From positions 6,394-70,393 of the forward strand of contig CAYSFG010000033.1 of NCBI GenBank assembly GCA_964430545.1: a stretch of DNA of 64,000 bases, given 5' to 3'. A model generated the notes under the pieces. The model ran no database searches, was not told where the DNA came from, and worked only from the letters and a program-made list of their open reading frames with translations. Every line of letters starts with the position of its first letter. Position 1 is the first letter of the stretch. The stretch is from Candidatus Woesearchaeota archaeon. GTDB lineage: Archaea > Nanobdellota > Nanobdellia > SCGC-AAA011-G17 > GW2011-AR18. Both the position numbers and the translations under genes were made by a program. Of the stretch, positions 840-63,027 are shown piece by piece.

Positions 840-1484
840 ATGGGAAGAAAGAAGAAAAAATCTACAAAAATTGAAGAAGTTATAATTAAGGAAAATATTG
901 TTCATGAACTTCCTAAAGAAGAATCTTCTGTTGAAGTCAAGGATGTTTTAAATGAAACTACTGAAACGGTTGAAGTATATTTGGAAAGAGAAATTGTTAT
1001 TTCTGATAGTACAAATTTGACTAGAGAATTATATGATAAAACTAGATACGGTGAGCCTACAGAAAATAAAAAATTTCAATATTCTTTGATTGAAGGATTA
1101 TATTTATTAGAAAGGGGAAAATTTAAAATAAAATCTGGTAATAAAACTTTAGATTTTGATTCTTATATTAAAAAAGCAAGAAAAATAGAACCAAATTTTT
1201 GGGTGAGATATTGTGTATTTAAGGATTTAAGAAAACGTGGTTATATTGTTAAAACTGCTTTAAAATTTGGTGCTGATTTTAGAGTTTATGATAGAGGTGT
1301 TAAGCCTGGTGAAGATCATGCAAGATGGATTGTTTATCCTGTATCAGAGGGAGAACAACTTGGGTGGTATGAATTCTCTGCTAAAAATAGAGTAGCACAT
1401 TCAACAAGGAAAAGATTATTAGTTGCTTGTGCAGATGTAGAATGTCAAATAACATATTGGGAAATAAGGTGGATTAGACCTTAA
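840..1484 (+). CDS. endA: tRNA-splicing endonuclease catalytic subunit (EndA family) with an N-terminal extension of about 60 aa
   Basis: C-terminal core FWVRYCVFKDLRKRGYIVKTALKFGADFRVYDRG...HARWIVYPV matches the EndA catalytic domain. Confidence 0.8.
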   Translation: MGRKKKKSTKIEEVIIKENIVHELPKEESSVEVKDVLNETTETVEVYLEREIVISDSTNLTRELYDKTRYGEPTENKKFQYSLIEGLYLLERGKFKIKSGNKTLDFDSYIKKARKIEPNFWVRYCVFKDLRKRGYIVKTALKFGADFRVYDRGVKPGEDHARWIVYPVSEGEQLGWYEFSAKNRVAHSTRKRLLVACADVECQITYWEIRWIRP

Positions 1485-7740: not shown

Positions 7741-8038
7741 TAATAATATTTATTTAATCTGATTAATTAAACTTTTGTTTTTAATATCATTCTATTTTTG
7801 TAATATTTTAAAAAATTTTCAATAAAGATTTATAAATAATAAAATAAATTAAATAAAAATGATAAAAAAGATAGAAATTTAAAAATTTATGAAGAATATT
7901 AGTTTTAAAAATAGCAAACATTCAACAAAATATTTTATATATAAGAAATTTGGTTATTTTCAAATTAATATTACATCAAAATAAAGAGAAGGTATATTAA
8001 ATAATAAATTAGATATAATAAAATTTGAAAAATAAAAT

Positions 8039-8148
8039 GCCATACCCAAGATTTGAACTTGGAACAACAGCCTGACTCACTAAGGTGGATATGAGAGTTA
8101 CACCCTAATTTCTTAAGTCTGTGCTCTGCCAGGTTGAGCTAGTATGGC
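8039..8148 (-). tRNA. Intron-containing tRNA (110 nt) with an intron of about 37 nt in the anticodon arm; isotype unresolved
   Basis: Minus strand: acceptor GCCATAC/GTATGGC (7 bp), D arm GCTC-AACCTGGCA-GAGC, T arm CCAAG-TTCAAAT-CTTGG, discriminator A. The anticodon stem CAGAC only pairs with GGCTG on the far side of a 37-nt insert, with one A-G mismatch. The unspliced loop reads TTAAGAA. Confidence 0.7.
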
Positions 8149-9732: not shown

Positions 9733-9818
9733 TGGACTTGTCGGGATTTTCGAAATTTTGTCGAACCCGAAGTTTCATCGACGCCAACGATGTGTATTAA
9801 CCATTCTACTACAAGCCC
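9733..9818 (-). tRNA. tRNA-Ala (anticodon GGC) with a 13-nt insertion in the T-loop
   Basis: Minus strand GGGCTTG TA GTAG AATGGTTAA TAC A CATCG TTGGCGT CGATG AAACT TCGGG [TTCGA CAAAATTTCGAAA AT] CCCGA CAAGTCC A. The G3:U70 wobble is the alanine identity pair and the anticodon loop is TTGGCGT. The T stem TCGGG/CCCGA encloses 20 nt instead of 7. Confidence 0.75.
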
Positions 9819-17803: not shown

Positions 17804-17850
17804 TGAGGCTGCCCGGATTTGAACCGGGATCTCAAGGTCCCAAACCTCGG
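17804..17850 (-). tRNA. tRNA-Pro(UGG)-like 3' half (position 26 through 3' end) with no 5' half nearby; split-tRNA half or tRNA fragment
   Basis: Minus strand C CGAGG TTTGGGA CCTTG AGAT CCCGG TTCAAAT CCGGG CAGCCTC A is a perfect anticodon arm (anticodon TGG) plus T arm plus 3' acceptor strand. The complementary 5' acceptor GAGGCTG and a D arm are absent within about 400 nt on either side. Confidence 0.5.
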
Positions 17851-18197
17851 GTTCTAACCAAGTTATACTACAAATACAGTTCAAAGGCCAAAACCTATTG
17901 AATCCCCATTATATTAACTTGGGCCCAAATTATTGGATTATGAAGACTTAATAAAGTTTACTTTATGTAACTTATTTCATCAATAAACCTATTTACTCAA
18001 TTCATTTTAATTGTAAATCTAATATCTATTGTATGTTTGTTATCTTTATTTCTTCTTCTGAGGATTATTTAATTTAGTATTATAATTTTTTTTGATTTCA
18101 TTTTCTAATATTAATTATTAGGTTTATAAAATTCTATTGTGTAGTTGGTAAGATCATTTAATAATATAAGATATATTAATTTTAAAAAATGTTAAAT

Positions 18198-34807: not shown

Positions 34808-35527
34808 ATGCAAATAAAAAATAATTTTATTCAGTTTAGATTAGTCAAGGAAGATAAAGAATATATTTATATTAAAGGAACTAGTGGTCCTGCTAAAGAA
34901 GTTAGAATATCCAAACATTTAACACCCGAACTTTATTTTTTAGCAGGAATAATTCTTGGCGATGGACATTTAGACAAAGATATAAAAAGAATTACATTAG
35001 AATTAACTGACAGAGAAAAATTAGAAAAGATTGCTACAATTTTTGAATTAGTATTTTCTTATACAAAAATAAAAATTGCAATTAGAACTGATAAAAGGGA
35101 AAATAGAAAAATAAGATTTTATTTTAATATAAATAATTCGCCAATATACCATTTATTCAACACTATCTTTGGAATACCTAAAGGAAAGAAAAGTGATATA
35201 ATAAAAGTGTCAAAATTTATTAAACAATCAAATTTAAAATTCAGAAAATATTTTCTTCTTGGAGTTTTTATAACAGACGGGGGGCGAAGACAAGGGGGTT
35301 TTGGTTTATCTACAGCTAGCAAAATATTTAGAGAAGATATATCTGAACTACTTTTTTCAATAGGAATTATACATTCAAAAGATAGTTGGATAAACAAAAA
35401 GTATAAAAAACCTTATTATGGTCTATCTTTTAGAAAAAAACAAATATACAATATGCAGGGGTACCAAAGTGGTCAAATGGGCCAGATTCTAGATTCTTTA
35501 TATGAGAAACTAGAAGGCTTAGCTTAG
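34808..35527 (+). CDS. LAGLIDADG-family homing endonuclease-like protein; its 3' end overlaps the 5' exon of the downstream tRNA
   Basis: Two LAGLIDADG motifs, FLAGIILGDGHL and LLGVFITDGGR. The ORF continues about 73 nt into the tRNA starting at 35455, so its true C-terminus is uncertain. Confidence 0.65.
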   Translation: MQIKNNFIQFRLVKEDKEYIYIKGTSGPAKEVRISKHLTPELYFLAGIILGDGHLDKDIKRITLELTDREKLEKIATIFELVFSYTKIKIAIRTDKRENRKIRFYFNINNSPIYHLFNTIFGIPKGKKSDIIKVSKFIKQSNLKFRKYFLLGVFITDGGRRQGGFGLSTASKIFREDISELLFSIGIIHSKDSWINKKYKKPYYGLSFRKKQIYNMQGYQSGQMGQILDSLYEKLEGLA

Positions 35528-35618
35528 GAAATCCTTAGGTGTTATGGGTGATTTTACACTACGATTTTATGACACCTGGTGGCTTAGGCCTTCGCAGGTT
35601 CGAATCCTGTCCCCTGCA
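35455..35618 (+). tRNA. Class II tRNA (Leu-like) carrying an intron of about 80 nt; anticodon unresolved
   Basis: Acceptor GCAGGGG/CCCCTGC (perfect), 3-bp D stem CCA/TGG with Leu-type D loop AAGTGGTCAAA, 3' anticodon strand CCTGG, 14-nt variable arm TGGCTTAGGCCTTC, T arm GCAGG-TTCGAAT-CCTGT, discriminator A. 164 nt against an expected 85. Confidence 0.65.
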
Positions 35619-35970
35619 TTATATTTCCTTAAGTTTAGTTAAAATAATAGCATATTCTGCAGGTTTGATATAATACCCTTCTTCAATTAATTTATTTAAT
35701 AATTCAACTGCTTTTTCTTTGTTGATTATATTTTTCTTCAAGGCAAGAAAAATAACTGTTGTTGTCCTAATTGTATTTATATTATAAGATTTGGCAGCTT
35801 TTATTGCATAAGCATCATCAATAATTAGAATTTCTTTTTTATCTTTTGAAAGAGATATAGCTTTCGTTTCTCATTTACCTAAATTGATATTAAGTTTATT
35901 CTTAATTTTTTCTACTTTAATCCATCCATCTTCTATTGCTTTTTTAATTATAATATGGAGGATTGTATAT
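35619..35970 (-). pseudogene. Degraded PIN-domain nucleic-acid-binding protein gene (COG2405-like): in-frame TGA and no start codon
   Basis: Minus-strand frame reads ...KKAIEDGWIKVEKIKNKLNINLGK*ETKAISLSKDKKEILIIDDAYAIKAAKSYNINTIRTTTVIFLALKKNII... The TGA at 35871-35873 falls at the conserved Gly of the LGKGE block. No ATG at the 5' end. Confidence 0.45.
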
Positions 35971-47506: not shown

Positions 47507-48148
47507 TTAACTATATCTTTCTTCTTTCCATATATCTCCATGATTATTATATCCTCTTACTTCCCAGAATCCTGGTTCGTCTTTATCAACAAATTTTAAT
47601 GCGTTTAAAAATTTTGATCCTTTCCATGCATATAATTGTGGTATTATCATTCTCATTGGCCATCCGTGTTCTTGTGATATTGGTTTTCCTTCTAATTCAT
47701 ATGCAATTATTACATTATTTTTTTCTAAGTCTTCTCTCGGTACGTTTGTTGAATATCCATCTGTCCCATATTGTATTAAATATTTCCAATTATCTTTTGG
47801 TTTTACAATTTTCACAAAATCTTTAAATGAAACACCTTTCCATTTTACATCAAATTTACTCCATGAGGTTACACAATGAAAATCTTCTGTTAAATTTGTA
47901 GCTGGCATTTTTAATATTTTATTATATGTAAATGATAATTCTTTTTCTATTAACCCATAAACTTTTAAACTCCATTTAGCTTTATCAAATTCTGGTTTAA
48001 CTCCTAGATCTAATACTGGAAATTTTTCTGTTAAATATTGACCTGGCGGTAATCTCTTATTTACATTTTCAGAATGTTTTTTATTTCTAAATAAATTTGC
48101 TAGTTTTTCTTTTGCTTCTATATATTTTTCATTTATTTCATTTGGCAT
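47507..48148 (-). CDS. Molybdopterin-binding oxidoreductase domain protein (sulfite oxidase family, MsrP/YedY-like)
   Basis: FHCVTSWSKFDVKWKGV and GWPMRMIIPQLYAWKGSKF match the Oxidored_molyb domain. Confidence 0.65.
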   Translation of the reverse strand: MPNEINEKYIEAKEKLANLFRNKKHSENVNKRLPPGQYLTEKFPVLDLGVKPEFDKAKWSLKVYGLIEKELSFTYNKILKMPATNLTEDFHCVTSWSKFDVKWKGVSFKDFVKIVKPKDNWKYLIQYGTDGYSTNVPREDLEKNNVIIAYELEGKPISQEHGWPMRMIIPQLYAWKGSKFLNALKFVDKDEPGFWEVRGYNNHGDIWKEERYS

Positions 48149-48237
48149 AATATTTTATATATTTGTTATAATATAAAACTATTTATGGATAGTTAAATCA
48201 ATAAAATATTGTAGTATAGACTTTAAATAATAAACTA

Positions 48238-48369
48238 TGGGCCCATCCGGACTCGAATTCTCCAACTTTTTTTAGAAGTTTCCGGAGACCTTCACCACGT
48301 TTACCCAAAATTTAAAACTTTTCAAGGTGACGTTTTAGCCATAAGCTATAGCCACTAAACTATGGGCCC
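48238..48369 (-). tRNA. tRNA-Phe (anticodon GAA), 132 nt with three apparent introns (D loop, anticodon loop 37/38, T loop)
   Basis: Minus strand GGGCCCA TA GTTT AGTGGCTA [TAGCTTATGGCT] AAAAC G TCACC TTGAAA [AGTTTTAAATTTTGGGTAAACG] T GGTGA AGGTC TCCGG [AAACTTCTAAAAAAAGTTGGAGAA] TTCGAGT CCGGA TGGGCCC A. All four stems are perfect only after removing the bracketed inserts. Confidence 0.7.
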
Positions 48370-48406
48370 AATAAAAAATTAAAATATCTAAAGAATAAAA
48401 GCTTTC

Positions 48407-49570
48407 CTATAATATTTTTATAGTCTCTTTAAACATTTCATTCATCTCATCTGTTTTAATAACGAGGATTTTTACTTTGCTATCTTTATTTTGTATATAT
48501 CCTTCTTCTTTAAATTTTTCATTCTTATTTTCATCAATTATTATTCCCAAGTTATCTAATTCTTTAAGTATTTTTTCTCTAATAACAATAGAATTGTAAC
48601 CTATTGCTCCTGTGAATATTATTAAATCTAATCCATTCATTGCAGCAATATAACTTCCTATATATTTTTTTATTCTATATGAAAATAAATCCAGTGCAAT
48701 CTTAACTTTATGATTTTTCTTTTCTAACTTTAATAGTTCTCTTACATCATCACTTTCCCCAAGTCCATAAAATCCGCATTCTTTGTTTAGATATTCTTCT
48801 AATTTTTCATAATCTAATTTTAGTTTTTTTCCTAAATATAATAAGGCGCCTGCGTCTATATCTCCTATTCTTGTTGAACCAAATATTCCTTCTAATGGTG
48901 TGTATCCCATGCTTGTATCAAAACTTTTTTGTTCTTTTATTGCAGTTATGCTAGACCCGCCCCCTAAATGGCATATTATTATTTTATCAGGTATTTCTTC
49001 AAATGAGCTTTTTAGTTTATTTAATATTGAGCTTATTGATATTCCATGATATCCATATTTATAAAGTTCTAATTTTTCTGCAATTTTATTGTTTATAGCA
49101 TACAATTTTGCAGTTTCTTGTTTTGTTTTATGAAATGCACTATCAGATATTCCTATAAATTTTACTTTAGGAAGTAATTTTTGTAAATTTATTAATTCAA
49201 TTAATGTTGGCTTTATGTGTAATTGGGCTGATTCACTTACTTCTCTTAATTTTTCTAAATAAATTTTATCTATTATTTTATTTTCTAAAAAATATAAACC
49301 AGGTGCTACTATTCTTATTCCTATTCCACTTAATCCATTATCTATTAAGTTTTTATTTATTAAATATTTTATTAAATATTTTGCAGAGTTTTCATAATCA
49401 TTTTTATTTATTTTTTTCTTTTCTTTTTTATCATTAAATTCTATATTAACTAAAAATTCTTTTCCAAATTTTTCAAAATTAGCTTTTAATATTAATTTAT
49501 GATTATACAAACTATACTTCTTTGAAGCACTCCCTACATTTACTATTAAATATTTTTTTTCCATTGCCAT
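48407..49570 (-). CDS. ackA: Acetate kinase
   Basis: N-terminal KYLIVNVGSASKKYSLY (ASKHA phosphate-1 motif). 387 aa. Overlaps and is co-oriented with phosphoketolase. Confidence 0.75.
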   Translation of the reverse strand: MAMEKKYLIVNVGSASKKYSLYNHKLILKANFEKFGKEFLVNIEFNDKKEKKKINKNDYENSAKYLIKYLINKNLIDNGLSGIGIRIVAPGLYFLENKIIDKIYLEKLREVSESAQLHIKPTLIELINLQKLLPKVKFIGISDSAFHKTKQETAKLYAINNKIAEKLELYKYGYHGISISSILNKLKSSFEEIPDKIIICHLGGGSSITAIKEQKSFDTSMGYTPLEGIFGSTRIGDIDAGALLYLGKKLKLDYEKLEEYLNKECGFYGLGESDDVRELLKLEKKNHKVKIALDLFSYRIKKYIGSYIAAMNGLDLIIFTGAIGYNSIVIREKILKELDNLGIIIDENKNEKFKEEGYIQNKDSKVKILVIKTDEMNEMFKETIKIL

Positions 49571-51864
49571 TTTTCTATTTCGTCAGGATCTATTCCATAT
49601 TCTTTTATATATTCAGAATGTTCTTTTAATTTTTTTTCATATTTTTTTATTATTTTTTGTGTTTTATATTTTTTAATTACATTATTTTTTTCTAATAACA
49701 TTAATGCTTCTATTAATAAATGATACCTGCTTGTTTTGTTTCTTACATGCATATCAAATGGTGTTGTTGTTGATCCGTTTTCTATATATCCATGTACTTT
49801 AAATCTTTCTGGATTTTTATGGTCACAAAGAATCGCTTTTATGTCATTCGGATATCCATGATAGTTGAATATGACTGGTTTGTCTTTTGTGAAGTAATTT
49901 TCAAAATCATTCAACGGTATTCTGCATGTTTCATTTCCTATTCCTATTGAAGATAGTTCCATAATATTAACAAATCTTATTTTTATTTCAGGAATTTCAT
50001 TTTTTAATATATCTATTGCAGCTAAACATTCTTTTGTCAAGTAATCCCCTATCCCAACAAATACTATTTCTGGATTTTTATCACTAGCAAATTCCCATAT
50101 ACTTAATCCCGTCTGTAATTCTTTTTCTGCTTTTTCAATAGTTAACCATCTTGGCTCTACTGTTTTTCCTGCAACTATTATGTTTATTCCATTTTTTGAT
50201 TCCAAACATTTTTTTAATACAACTAAAGTAGAACTTCCATCTGCAGGAAAATATACTTTAGATAAACAATTTGTTCTTTCAAGCATTCCACTTATGAATT
50301 TTGGATTTTGATGAGAAAAACCATTATGTTCTTGTCTCCATCCTGATGATGTTAATATATAATTTAATGATGAAACATCTCCTCTCCATGATGTCTCGCC
50401 AGCTATTTTTAAAAATTTTTCATATTGGTCTGCCATGCTACTAACTATTTCTATAAAAGCTTCATAAGATGCAAATACACAATGTCTTCCTGTTAATATA
50501 TATCCTTGTGATAGTCCTTGTAGTGTATGTTCACTTAACATTTCTATTACTCTTCCATTTCTTCCGATATCTTTATCCCATTCTTTTATTGGCCAAACAA
50601 ATGATCTTTTTGTGGTTTTGAATATTTTATCTAATTTATTTGAGTAAGTCTCATCTGGTGACATTAATCTAAAATTGTTTTTATTTAATTTAAAAACTTC
50701 ATTTAAATATGCTCCGACTCTTCTCATACTTGATGATCCTATTGTTCCTGGTTTTGTTGAGTCTTCCTCAAATTTTTTTATATTTGGTAATTTTAATTCT
50801 TTATAATTTTTCCATCCTAAAGCATGTTTATTTAGTCCCATTGGTAATTTAGGTATTATTTCTTTTATTTCTTCTATAAAGCCATTATTAAATAATTGAT
50901 TAAAATTATAACTTCCAAACCATTTTTCAACAGCTTCAAGTTCTTTTAAATTTGTTTTTGCTTCTTTTGCTATTACTTGATGTGATAAACAATTACCTTC
51001 TAGTTTTTCTCCATTTAATGTTTTTATTCCAGTCCATCCTTTTTGCGTTCTTAATATTATCATGGGAAATCTTGGTGATAGTATTCCATTTTTTGATTGT
51101 ATTTTTTTTATTTTTATATAACATTCTTCTAATTCATCAATCATTTTTTCATAAATATTTGGTTCTTCCACTATTATGGGGTCATATCCGTATCCATAGA
51201 ATAATGATTTTAATTCTTTGTTTGACATTCTTCCTAATATTGTAGGTCCTGAAATTTTATATCCATTTAAATGTAATATTGGTAGAACTGCGCCATTTGT
51301 TTTTGGATCTATGAATTTGTTTATATGCCATGCTGTTGCTGTTGCTCCTGTTTCTGCTTCTCCATCACCTATTAAACATGCGACTATTAATTCTGGATTA
51401 TCTAATATTGCACCATATGCTGTGGATAATGAATATCCTAATTCTCCTCCCTCTACTATTACTCCTGGTGCTCCTGGATTGCTGTGGCTCGGAAATCCAT
51501 ATGGCCAACTAAAGTTTTTTGCAATATATTCTATTCCTTGTTTTGTATGTGTTGCTTCTTTGTAGAATTTTCCTAAACTTCCTTCTAAAAATAGATTTGA
51601 TTGTAATGCAGGAAATCCATGTCCTGGCCCCAATACAAACATCATATTTAATTCATGTTTTTTAATTAAATAATTTAAATTTGCATATACAAAATTGATT
51701 CCAGGACATGTTCCCCAATGTCCTAACAATCTTGGTTTTATATCTTCAAAGTTTAATTTTTTTTCTAGAAAGAAATTATTTTTTAAATATATCTGTATCG
51801 CTGATAAGTAATTTACTGCTCTTACATATTTTTTTATTGATTCTACAGCCTCTTTTTTATTCAT
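49546..51864 (-). CDS. xfp: Xylulose-5-phosphate/fructose-6-phosphate phosphoketolase (XFP, TPP-dependent)
   Basis: Phosphoketolase signature LLGHWGTCPG near the N-terminus, TPP-binding GDGE block. 772 aa. Confidence 0.9.
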   Translation of the reverse strand: MNKKEAVESIKKYVRAVNYLSAIQIYLKNNFFLEKKLNFEDIKPRLLGHWGTCPGINFVYANLNYLIKKHELNMMFVLGPGHGFPALQSNLFLEGSLGKFYKEATHTKQGIEYIAKNFSWPYGFPSHSNPGAPGVIVEGGELGYSLSTAYGAILDNPELIVACLIGDGEAETGATATAWHINKFIDPKTNGAVLPILHLNGYKISGPTILGRMSNKELKSLFYGYGYDPIIVEEPNIYEKMIDELEECYIKIKKIQSKNGILSPRFPMIILRTQKGWTGIKTLNGEKLEGNCLSHQVIAKEAKTNLKELEAVEKWFGSYNFNQLFNNGFIEEIKEIIPKLPMGLNKHALGWKNYKELKLPNIKKFEEDSTKPGTIGSSSMRRVGAYLNEVFKLNKNNFRLMSPDETYSNKLDKIFKTTKRSFVWPIKEWDKDIGRNGRVIEMLSEHTLQGLSQGYILTGRHCVFASYEAFIEIVSSMADQYEKFLKIAGETSWRGDVSSLNYILTSSGWRQEHNGFSHQNPKFISGMLERTNCLSKVYFPADGSSTLVVLKKCLESKNGINIIVAGKTVEPRWLTIEKAEKELQTGLSIWEFASDKNPEIVFVGIGDYLTKECLAAIDILKNEIPEIKIRFVNIMELSSIGIGNETCRIPLNDFENYFTKDKPVIFNYHGYPNDIKAILCDHKNPERFKVHGYIENGSTTTPFDMHVRNKTSRYHLLIEALMLLEKNNVIKKYKTQKIIKKYEKKLKEHSEYIKEYGIDPDEIEKWQWKKNI

Positions 51865-53136: not shown

Positions 53137-53221
53137 AGCCCCTGGTGGAAATTGAATCCACAACCTCTTCCTCATTAGCATAAGTTACCAAGGAAGGACT
53201 CCACCATTAAGCTACAGGGGC
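53137..53221 (-). tRNA. tRNA-Thr (anticodon GGU) with a 13-nt canonical anticodon-loop intron
   Basis: Minus strand GCCCCTG TA GCTT AATGGTG GAGT C CTTCC TTGGTA [ACTTATGCTAATG] A GGAAG AGGTT GTGGA TTCAATT TCCAC CAGGGGC T. Confidence 0.75.
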
Positions 53222-58528: not shown

Positions 58529-58650
58529 GTATGAATGCGGGGGACATTGACCATGCTGATAATCTAGCAACGCTAAGTGTCTTTAGTATGCCTTAATGTT
58601 TTAATAGATAAACTTATTTATATTGTCTTCTGTTATTCTTCTGGCTTAGT
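58529..58650. repeat. Left copy of a direct repeat of about 120 nt (partner at 62622..62735)
   Basis: GAATGCGGGGGACATTGACCATGCTGATAATCTAGCAACGCTAAGTGTCTTTAGTATGCCTTAAT...AAACTTATTTATATTGTCTTCTGTTATTC is near-identical to the copy at 62622, differing by 3-4 substitutions and one 12-nt variable spacer. Confidence 0.7.
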
Positions 58651-59080
58651 TTATTTTTTGTTTTATTTGATTTATTATTTCTCCTGAGCATTTATCCCAG
58701 AATTCTAAAATATTTTTAGCTTTCATTATGTCTACTTTGAATCCTCTATAATTTACGTCATGTCTTATTTTTTTGAATAGGAATAGATTGTTTAGTTGCA
58801 TTTTTTTTTTTATTTCCATTTCTTTTAGTATGTCCATGCTTACTTCATGATTTTTCGGTTCATATCCTAATAACCACCATTGTGCGTCTCCTAATTGTCT
58901 TATTGATTCGTATGTTTCTCTAAAGATTAGTGTTGCGCTTTCTTCGTTTAATGGTATCATTTTTACTATTTTAATGTTTATTTCTGCTATTTCTATCATT
59001 GATTTTATTTTATGTATATCTAGTTGTCTTGGTCTTAATTGTTTATCTTTTTCTAATAATTCTATTATCTCTTTCTTCAT
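58646..59080 (-). CDS. HEPN-domain protein (toxin of the second HEPN/MNT pair)
   Basis: Helical 144 aa protein immediately downstream of an MNT gene. Confidence 0.65.
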   Translation of the reverse strand: MKKEIIELLEKDKQLRPRQLDIHKIKSMIEIAEINIKIVKMIPLNEESATLIFRETYESIRQLGDAQWWLLGYEPKNHEVSMDILKEMEIKKKMQLNNLFLFKKIRHDVNYRGFKVDIMKAKNILEFWDKCSGEIINQIKQKIN

Positions 59081-59861: not shown

Positions 59862-61166
59862 TTATTCTAACAACCACTTCCATAATGGTATTATTTTTAT
59901 TGTTTTATTTTCTATTTTCTCTTCTTTGTAATCAGATTCATTTGTTATAATTATTCCTTTGTTTAGTTTAAAATGATTTAATGATGTTATTAATGAGTTT
60001 ATTTCTCTGTTTCTTGTTTCATTATTTGATAAGTTAGTGCATACTTGTATTATTGAAACTATTTTTTTACCTTCTTTCATTATGAAGTCTATTTCTTTAT
60101 CTTCTGTTGTTTTGAAATAGTTTATAGTAAGTAGTGGGTTTTTTTCTTTTTGTCTTAACAATTGTAGGAATACAGTATTTTCTAGTCTTTTTCCTTGTTC
60201 TTGAATTGAGAATAGGTTTAGGAAACTTATATCATCAAGATATATTTTTGGTATTGATAAACCGCTCTTCTTTTCAGAATTTTCGTATTTTCTTAGTGCG
60301 AAAATAAAGAATGAATCTTCGAAAATATTAAAATTATAATATAATGTGTTTTTGCTTATTTTAATTCCTTGTGATTTTAGGTTATTATATAGACTATTTA
60401 TGCTTAATTCTTTAGCTGTAGAGCTTATTAATGAATTCATTAACCATCTTATTATTTTTGTGTTTTTTAGGCTATACCTCTCGACTATATCTTTGTATAT
60501 TACAAGATCGAAATAATCTTTTACTATTTTCATTTTTTCATTCTTGTCATTTTCTAAAACTACTTCAGGATAGCCTCCGTATAGTAGATATTCTTCAAGG
60601 TAATTAAGTAATCTTGATTTTGTTTCTGTGTCTATTTTATTAATATCAAACTTGAATTTTTTGAAAGCTAAAAATTCTTTAAAAGATAATGGAAGTAGAA
60701 GATTTGTTATAGATCTTCCTCTTAATGATGTTGCTATTTCTTTGCTTAATAATTTTGATGATGATCCTGTTAAGAAAATTTGGCAATTGTATCTGTCATA
60801 AATATCTCTTATAGCAAGTTCCCATTTGTTTATTACTTGAGGTTCGTCTATGAATATGAAAAGTTTTTTCTTTATTATTTCTGGAAATATAGACCATTGG
60901 ACTTCTATTAATTCACTTATTTCTTTATATGATATATCACTTAAAATAGGGCTTTCAAAATTAAAATATAAAATCTGCTCTTTAAGTATTCCTGATTTTT
61001 CCAAATTTTGTATTTTATTAAATAATAAAGAAGTTTTACCAACCCTTCTAGCACCTATAACTGTCTGAATTTTATTAGATTCTTTAATTATTAATTCTCT
61101 GTCTATAAGATTGAATTCTCTTTTATTAAAATCCAATAAATAACGTTTTATCTTTTCTGTGTCCAT
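59862..61166 (-). CDS. AAA+ superfamily ATPase (COG1373; AAA_14 plus DUF4143)
   Basis: Walker A IGARRVGKTSLL, Walker B FIFIDEPQ. Architecture typical of archaeal DUF4143 ATPases. Confidence 0.75.
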   Translation of the reverse strand: MDTEKIKRYLLDFNKREFNLIDRELIIKESNKIQTVIGARRVGKTSLLFNKIQNLEKSGILKEQILYFNFESPILSDISYKEISELIEVQWSIFPEIIKKKLFIFIDEPQVINKWELAIRDIYDRYNCQIFLTGSSSKLLSKEIATSLRGRSITNLLLPLSFKEFLAFKKFKFDINKIDTETKSRLLNYLEEYLLYGGYPEVVLENDKNEKMKIVKDYFDLVIYKDIVERYSLKNTKIIRWLMNSLISSTAKELSINSLYNNLKSQGIKISKNTLYYNFNIFEDSFFIFALRKYENSEKKSGLSIPKIYLDDISFLNLFSIQEQGKRLENTVFLQLLRQKEKNPLLTINYFKTTEDKEIDFIMKEGKKIVSIIQVCTNLSNNETRNREINSLITSLNHFKLNKGIIITNESDYKEEKIENKTIKIIPLWKWLLE

Positions 61167-62621: not shown

Positions 62622-62735
62622 TATGGAATGCGGGGAACATTGACCATGCTGATAATCTAGCTACTCTAAGTGTCTTTAGTATGCCTTAATAGTATAATGT
62701 TAAACTTATTTATATTGTCTTCTGTTATTCGTCTG
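62622..62735. repeat. Right copy of the direct repeat of about 120 nt (partner at 58529..58650)
   Basis: See the left copy. Confidence 0.7.
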
Positions 62736-62775
62736 ACTCTTCTTCTACTTCAATTGATTTTGATTTCTTTTCTTT

Positions 62776-63027
62776 CTAAGAATTCTTTGGCTGCTCTGAT
62801 TTTCTTTGATGATCTTCTTTGTCGTTTATTATTTTTTTAAGCAAGTCTAAATGCTTTTGATAATATTTTTCTCTTATTTCTATTGCTTCTTCTAATAATT
62901 CTCTTATTGTTGTTGATAGGTCTTTTTGTTCTAACTTTGCTAATCTTTCTAGTTTAGTTAATAGTTCATCATCTAACCTAAACATTTTTCTTTCCTTTTT
63001 CTTCTTGGGCTTTTCTTTGTAGATCAT
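62776..63027 (-). CDS. Ribbon-helix-helix (CopG/Arc-like) DNA-binding protein
   Basis: KMFRLDDELLTKLERLAKLEQKDLSTTIRELLEEAI is an RHH beta-strand plus two helices. Confidence 0.5.
   Translation of the reverse strand: MIYKEKPKKKKERKMFRLDDELLTKLERLAKLEQKDLSTTIRELLEEAIEIREKYYQKHLDLLKKIINDKEDHQRKSEQPKNS

Follow-up and report, generated by a model that had tools for sequence, protein, structure and literature searches.

A tRNA-Val(GAC) gene with three predicted introns, one of them splitting the anticodon, in a Woesearchaeota-like DPANN archaeon

A 132-nt gene on the minus strand of a 64-kb stretch of archaeal DNA (64,000 nucleotides, referred to as the window) appears to encode a tRNA-Val(GAC) interrupted by three introns: a D-arm intron of 13 nt (position 22/23), one of 22 nt that splits the anticodon (34/35) and a T-arm intron of 24 nt (53/54). 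The probability of this reading is estimated at about 0.87. We infer splicing from the sequence, the helix geometry at the junctions, the match to the tRNA-Val family and the differences between the introns of this gene and those of a relative. The three predicted introns are supported by bulge-helix-bulge (BHB) geometry and, independently and in agreement with it, by about 85 archaeal tRNA-Val genes used for comparison. A first-pass annotation had already recognized three inserts in one archaeal tRNA gene, and on this point the sequence is exactly as it was parsed there. The amino-acid identity given there, tRNA-Phe(GAA), and two of the three junctions are revised here.

The gene occupies 48238..48369, with G1 at 48369 and the discriminator base A73 at 48238; the CCA end is not encoded. 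From 48369 to 48238 the minus strand reads GGGCCCA TA GTTT (21 nt) AAAC G TCACC (29 nt) GGTGA AGGTC TCCGG (31 nt) CCGGA TGGGCCC A. The locus lies in a 258-nt intergenic gap with a minus-strand ORF on either side, one encoding a molybdopterin oxidoreductase-domain protein (47507-48148) and the other acetate kinase (48407-49570), and it forms a local GC island in a window of about 25% GC. Upstream of the gene, at -36 to -25 (48394..48405, minus strand), is an A/T-rich element, AAAGCTTTTATT, that is conserved in the syntenic relative L139 described below. It reads AAAG(C/T)TTTTATT across the two sequences, and the remaining flanks have diverged in the alignment. By its position and sequence the element looks like an archaeal BRE/TATA promoter.

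Two other features of this neighborhood were observed. A 14-nt sequence at the start of the gene, GGGCCCATAGTTTA (48356-48369), recurs at the 3' end (48231-48244) on the minus strand, where it takes in the 3' strand of the acceptor stem, A73 and the trailer's first 7 nt; L139 does not share these 7 nt, and the repeat may be a chance occurrence. The best homologues of the acetate kinase, at about 50% identity, come mostly from CPR bacteria (Paceibacterota, Azambacteria), which suggests that the gene may have been gained by horizontal transfer. A phosphoketolase gene (49546-51864) is located immediately upstream of it.

The predicted gene consists of four exons and three introns, all on the minus strand. 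Exon 1 (positions 1-22, GGGCCCATAGTTTAGTGGCTAT, 48348..48369) is the same as the start of an intron-free Woesearchaeota tRNA-Val gene, L003. It is followed by intron 1 (13 nt, AGCTTATGGCTAA, 48335..48347), placed by the BHB scan and by the U13·U22 pair that its removal restores. Exon 2 (positions 23-34, AACGTCACCTTG, 48323..48334), exon 3 (positions 35-53, ACGTGGTGAAGGTCTCCGG, 48282..48300) and exon 4 (positions 54-73, TTCGAGTCCGGATGGGCCCA, 48238..48257) are each identical in L139, and exon 4 matches a T arm and acceptor common to many archaeal tRNA-Val genes. Between exons 2 and 3 lies intron 2 (22 nt, AAAAGTTTTAAATTTTGGGTAA, 48301..48322), placed by BHB geometry, shuffling tests and L139, and between exons 3 and 4 lies intron 3 (24 nt, AAACTTCTAAAAAAAGTTGGAGAA, 48258..48281), placed by BHB geometry, shuffling tests and its absence in L139. 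The spliced product is the 73-nt sequence formed by GGGCCCAUAGUUUAGUGGCUAU, AACGUCACCUUG, ACGUGGUGAAGGUCUCCGG and UUCGAGUCCGGAUGGGCCCA joined in that order. Its anticodon loop is UUGACGU, its D stem pairs GUUU with UAAC and leaves U13·U22 as a mismatch, A73 is present, and ARAGORN identifies it as tRNA-Val(gac). The product would be charged with valine by ValRS.

Standard tools do not find this gene. ARAGORN made no call at 48238-48369 with or without its intron mode, and the Rfam tRNA covariance model gave no match at the locus even at E<=10 on a 401-nt slice. Since both are silent, no tRNA structure with zero or one intron fits, in line with the earlier view of a gene with several inserts. 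Lowering the ARAGORN thresholds yielded dozens of spurious calls in the AT-rich window and was uninformative. When the inserts are removed, ARAGORN takes both spliced versions as tRNAs, Val-GAC with the BHB cuts and Phe-GAA with the cuts of the first-pass annotation. Thus the cloverleaf alone cannot choose between valine and phenylalanine.

The junctions were defined by the geometry of the splice motifs and by homology. In the archaeal BHB motif a central helix forms between four exon bases and four intron bases close to the intron's 3' end, and the cuts fall two bases 3' of each strand. All pairs of cut sites were scanned for this geometry. The cutting rule gave the homology-defined product in 5/5 clear intron-bearing relatives (L112, L092, L039, L022 and L025). 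In the gene described here the central helix has four of four pairs at each of the three homology-defined junctions. All three motifs are relaxed to some degree, none having the strict hBHBh' form with its two flanking helices and two intact 3-nt bulges; for introns 2 and 3 the outer helix is imperfect, being absent or offset.

At the T arm the fit is perfect. Intron 3 has a central helix CUCC/GGAG of four Watson-Crick pairs, bulges GG↓A and AA↓U (arrows mark the cuts) and a 5-bp inner helix AACUU/AAGUU. The 24-nt insert between TCCGG and TTCGAGT that had been noted earlier is thus exact. At intron 2 (AAAAGUUUUAAAUUUUGGGUAA) the preceding exon ends with CACCUUG and the following exon begins with ACGU; the central helix is ACCU/GGGU, the bulges are UG↓A and AA↓A, and the inner helix has 6 bp. 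This places the intron at 34/35, which makes the anticodon GAC. The first-pass annotation had the correct length of 22 nt and had put the insert at the canonical site 37/38. At 37/38, however, a G·A mismatch leaves only three of the four central pairs and an inner helix is lacking; at 38/39 there is no central pair at all. Intron 1 (AGCUUAUGGCUAA) has a relaxed bulge-helix-loop motif with a central helix GGCU/GGCU, a 3' bulge AA↓A and a 2-bp outer helix. Its 5' site falls in a loop, and G·U pairs account for two of the four in its central helix. The 12-nt insert proposed earlier for the D loop is replaced by 13 nt at 22/23, because in the BHB scan the 12-nt cuts in the D arm form no central helix, the best of them having two of four pairs. 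The expectation that BHB motifs would be found on folding the junctions was thus borne out at all three sites, in relaxed form and after two of the sites had been shifted, and failed at 37/38.

The significance of these motifs was assessed by shuffling the introns with the cuts set by homology, which gave P values of about 0.012 for the D arm, 1.4e-4 for the anticodon and <5e-6 for the T arm. The three motifs can coexist in a single fold of -24 to -27 kcal/mol, an energy well above that of the minimum-energy fold (-38.7 kcal/mol). Shifting the first two cuts by one base, to 23/24 and 35/36, leaves the product unchanged, so the exact positions of these two junctions are set solely by the BHB geometry.

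A metagenome scan with exon 3 gave 21 matches, of which one is real. This is L139, a contig of 4.2 kb and 26% GC, and it is the one informative relative found; the other 20 are chance matches in contigs of 52-73% GC without tRNA context. Acetate kinase proved a poor bait for relatives, the tRNA being absent from contigs L143 and L144, and when viral contigs were scanned with exon 1 a single match came up, a chance one. L139 is syntenic with the window, carrying acetate kinase (68% amino-acid identity), the tRNA and then the oxidoreductase (87%). Its exons are identical to those of the window at 72 of 73 positions. The sole change, C5 to T in exon 1, still allows pairing with G68.

The introns of L139 have changed in a different manner. 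Its intron 1 is 12 nt long and lies at the same site. The intron strand of the central helix is GGCC in L139 and GGCU in the window, so that a G·U pair becomes G-C; the sequence GGCY AA, comprising this strand and the 3' bulge, is conserved, whereas the remaining insert varies in sequence and length. Intron 2 is 33 nt long in L139, with the first six and last eleven bases as in the window, and its inner helix of 7 bp includes one compensatory change from U-A to A-U. The T arm of L139 is uninterrupted; TCCGG is directly followed there by TTCGAGT, and the alignment gap spans precisely the 24 nt of intron 3. This pattern, in which exons are conserved, introns vary but keep their splice motifs, and one intron is exactly present or absent, is that of real introns and argues against a decaying pseudogene.

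These data bear on two alternative readings. First, introns 2 and 3 alone might be spliced, with the D-arm insert retained in the mature tRNA as an enlarged D loop or extra hairpin. The D-arm motif is indeed weaker than the other two, folding to minimum energy gives an uninterrupted 8-bp hairpin without bulges at this place, and the EndA of this organism has no obvious specificity loop. Contacts between G18/G19 and the T loop are, however, part of the established architecture of tRNA, and a D loop of 21 nt would disrupt them. Conservation of GGCY AA in L139, where the rest of the insert has changed, also speaks against retention, as does the occurrence of clear BHB motifs at the D-arm introns of other archaeal Val genes (L092, L039 and L112). 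Retention of the insert is thus very unlikely. Second, and with as little probability, the locus could be a decaying tRNA pseudogene without function, its inserts being junk that is never removed. This would agree with the failure of the standard detectors to make a call. It does not agree with exons that are almost invariant between the window and L139 when the flanking proteins are only 68-87% identical and the introns and flanks have diverged, nor with intron segments belonging to the splice motifs that are either conserved or changed in a compensatory way. All three inserts show BHB geometry far beyond chance in the shuffling tests, and the promoter-like element upstream is conserved.

The identity of the tRNA was examined by comparison with other archaeal genes. 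The T arm and acceptor were used to scan one genome per species, allowing a gap of 0-30 nt, and at least 119 loci were recovered; every listed locus has an intact T arm. Among the matches listed, 87 of the 116 loci typed by ARAGORN are tRNA-Val (TAC, GAC or CAC), most of the rest are Ile, Met or Lys tRNAs, and none is Phe-GAA. The acceptor stem, D arm, variable loop and T arm of the locus are those of archaeal tRNA-Val, and the product is identical at 65 of 73 positions to L096, a Val-GAC gene. The Woesearchaeota tRNA-Val gene L003 begins with GGGCCCATAGTTTAGTGGCTATAACGT, and once the 13-nt D-arm intron is removed the first 27 nt of the product are identical to it.

The D stem and the anticodon loop provide additional criteria. 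T13 and T22 are present in all 49 distinct archaeal Val genes, corresponding to a U·U mismatch that closes the D stem, and only the 13-nt cut at 22/23 yields U13·U22. The loop TTGACGT is the commonest anticodon loop among Val-GAC relatives (5/8). It occurs in the intron-free DPANN Val-GAC genes L094, L004, L046, L054 and L072, and also in L112 once the D-arm intron of that gene is removed. The spliced versions were scored against an nhmmer profile (HMM) built from the 49 distinct Val genes. The BHB product scored 68.5-68.6 bits, a perfect-stem alternative with a 13-nt cut 65.4 bits, and the products of the first-pass annotation 58.9-59.1 bits.

The reading as tRNA-Phe(GAA) removes 12 nt from the D loop, 22 nt at 37/38 or 38/39 and 24 nt at 53/54, and gains four perfect stems. 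Its spliced product is accepted by ARAGORN as tRNA-Phe(gaa), and at 37/38 a relaxed motif with three of four central pairs can be drawn using the 5-bp anticodon stem as the outer helix. Nevertheless it is highly improbable. Genes that share its T arm and acceptor are predominantly Val and, among the matches listed, never Phe-GAA. Its anticodon-loop junction has the G·A mismatch and lacks an inner helix at 37/38, and has no central pairs at 38/39; moreover its 5' cut would break into the inner helix that L139 keeps, with a compensatory change. Its 12-nt D-loop cut has no central helix, its perfect D stem contradicts the invariant U13·U22, and its HMM score is about 9.5 bits below that of the BHB product. 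The D stem GTTT/AAAC had been offered as perfect in the first-pass annotation, where boundaries were chosen so as to make every stem perfect, and from this choice came the wrong anticodon and the two wrong junctions. The rule misled because the mismatch U13·U22 is invariant (49/49) in archaeal tRNA-Val. Alternative splicing at 34/35 or 37/38, producing two tRNAs with GAC or GAA anticodons from one gene, could draw on some BHB-like geometry at both sites, but its probability is negligible since a Phe anticodon on a Val body would misread codons, the two structures are mutually exclusive with 34/35 backed by covariation, and nothing positive speaks in its favor.

With the tRNA-Val(GAC) reading, the T-arm intron is of evolutionary interest. 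If true, its presence in the window and its exact absence in the nearest relative, L139, would capture a recent gain or loss of an intron. The sequence of intron 3 is unique in the window and the fetched loci, except that the contigs L001 and L002, which come from two other samples, bear the same locus as the window. Sequencing runs ERR3478687 and ERR4904393 contain the locus. The possibility that intron 3 is a mobile, repeated element was rejected, since neither the window nor the fetched loci of other organisms contain a further copy. A scan of JGI metagenomes for an insert of 10-40 nt at 53/54 in the same T arm and acceptor context gave zero matches. As a separate observation, the D-arm intron (48335-48347) resembles the adjoining exon (48349-48361), AGCTTA-TGGCTA versus AGTTTAGTGGCTA, with a shuffle P of 0.012. 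The resemblance weakly hints that the D-arm intron might have come from a tandem duplication of this exon; the L139 intron at the same site has no such similarity.

Other tRNA genes of the window are also interrupted, making 5/5 of those seen in the 64 kb. One is a hidden tRNA on the minus strand at 17804-17907. The Rfam model matches 17804-17877 with three mismatched acceptor pairs, which arise because the true 5' end, GGGG (17907-17904), is split off by a 30-nt intron (17874-17903) at 4/5 in the acceptor stem. The junction of this intron is a strict BHB with a central helix AUGG/CUGU, a 4-bp outer and a 5-bp inner helix, and the spliced product is tRNA-Pro(tgg) by ARAGORN. The others are a Leu-UAG tRNA (8038-8148, minus strand) with an intron of about 31 nt, found by ARAGORN only and below the Rfam threshold; an Arg-UCU tRNA (35454-35619, plus strand) with an intron of about 83-85 nt; and a Thr-GGU tRNA (53137-53221, minus strand) with an intron of about 13-15 nt, the last two as read from ARAGORN or Rfam. 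Two features unrelated to tRNA were also seen. A direct repeat of about 160 nt (58533-58692 and 62626-62784), with copies 4.09 kb apart and the first 73 nt 92% identical, brackets ORFs including an AAA_14/DUF4143 ATPase (59862-61166); the copies could have arisen by duplication of regions upstream of genes or could be the termini of a mobile element. A GC-rich intergenic island at 9734-9809 (GGACTTGTCGGGATTTTCGAAATTTTGTCGAACCCGAAG...) has hairpin potential and matches no Rfam family at the gathering threshold; it may be a small RNA.

The enzyme that would remove these introns is encoded in the same window. EndA, the tRNA splicing endonuclease, is a protein of 214 amino acids (840..1484, plus strand; Pfam PF02778 and PF01974), and its gene lies at the start of the window as the first-pass annotation had reported. 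Also upheld is the idea of introns at non-canonical sites, of which there are two, in an archaeon that encodes EndA. The protein is a single unit with N-terminal and catalytic domains. Its best relatives of solved structure are the catalytic subunit of N. equitans (3IEY_A, 6.8e-34) and the subunit of the M. jannaschii homotetramer (1A79, 1.3e-30), and its catalytic Tyr, His and Lys residues align to those of the solved enzymes. Its homologues, 60-77% identical and 175-250 residues long, are labelled as Woesearchaeota or Nanoarchaeota tRNA-intron lyase and so indicate where the organism belongs. There is no second EndA-like ORF within the 64-kb window.

Residues 67-214 of the protein are colinear with M. 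jannaschii EndA. In pairwise alignments the interval between the catalytic Tyr and His has no insertion relative to 1A79, unlike the enzymes of N. equitans (+6 residues) and ARMAN-2 (+5 residues; PMC3488258). EndA of the α4 type has been described as cutting strict BHB motifs only, and the cutting of relaxed motifs goes with inserted specificity loops, known as L1/CSL, L2/ASL and L3, the last of which is usually borne by DPANN enzymes (PMC5829648). An α4-like EndA without the loop insertions of the N. equitans and ARMAN-2 enzymes would here have to cut three relaxed motifs and the acceptor-stem intron of tRNA-Pro. If the genome holds no second subunit or paralogue, the broad substrate range of EndA in this Woesearchaeota lineage might rest on a determinant that has not been described, though we consider this rather unlikely. 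One candidate would be the lysine-rich N-terminal extension of roughly 45-65 residues, which is beyond the reach of alignments to solved structures.

The inferred pathway, from transcription through cleavage to ligation, together with the order in which the introns leave, is as follows. Transcription would probably start from the BRE/TATA-like element about 25-36 nt upstream and give a precursor of about 132 nt. At each junction four bases of the exon and four from the 3' region of the intron would form a central helix. Each cut would then lie two bases 3' of one strand of this helix, within a bulge or loop of a BHB or relaxed BHB/BHL motif. EndA would then cut at 22/23, 34/35 and 53/54. An RNA ligase would join the four exons, the ends would be trimmed and CCA added, and the expected end product is a 73-nt tRNA with the anticodon loop UUGACGU.

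The locus has practical consequences for annotation. The gene is missed by standard tRNA finders, and cutting it to give the tidiest cloverleaf yields Phe instead of Val. Genomes like this one would therefore seem to be without tRNA-Val(GAC), and hand curation could add a spurious tRNA-Phe. BHB geometry combined with features that are invariant in the family, such as U13·U22, resolves the gene cleanly. In biological terms, a three-intron tRNA is added to the DPANN record together with one clean case of presence/absence of a T-arm intron, and the locus raises the question how relaxed motifs are cut by an EndA that appears to lack the described specificity loops.

Sugahara and colleagues reportedly described multi-intron tRNA genes in the Thermoproteales and in other Crenarchaeota in 2007 and 2008. 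Crenarchaeota such as the Thermoproteales have multi-intron tRNA genes with BHB, HBh' or hBH motifs at non-canonical positions; 22/23 and 53/54 are among the known intron positions, and crenarchaeal tRNA genes with up to three introns are described (PMC4090602). The gene described here is like these in having up to three short introns, BHB or relaxed BHB motifs, a precursor fold that is not a cloverleaf and predicted removal by EndA. It differs in its host, a Woesearchaeota-like DPANN archaeon of 25% GC, and in its EndA, a single unit nearest to those of N. equitans and M. jannaschii rather than a subunit of the crenarchaeal heterotetramer with its Crenarchaea-specific loop. An intron at 34/35, splitting the anticodon, was not found in the literature on archaeal tRNA introns that a limited full-text search covered.

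DPANN archaea have more non-canonical and multiple-intron tRNA genes, and the tRNA sets obtained for them with standard tools are incomplete (Kaneta et al. 2018, PMC5829648). The disrupted genes of that study are from the same superphylum as this locus. The intron-containing tRNA-Val genes of Woesearchaeota, Nanoarchaeota and Thermoplasmatota (L073, L112, L092, L039, L022 and others) have the same body and BHB-type introns. The D-arm introns of L092 and L039 lie 1-2 nt upstream of intron 1 of the window, L022 has an intron at 33/34 and L073 has two introns. Among the matches listed, no fetched relative has three introns. None of them has a T-arm intron either, which says little since the scan pattern demanded an uninterrupted T arm. 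Outside the archaea, tRNA genes of eukaryotic nuclei and nucleomorphs can have the same layout, with one intron in each of three arms; these differ in that they depend on another endonuclease and have an independent origin. The current picture of archaeal tRNA splicing is unchanged: multi-intron archaeal tRNAs with non-canonical introns are already known, and to these the locus adds a three-intron example from the DPANN archaea in which the anticodon itself is split.
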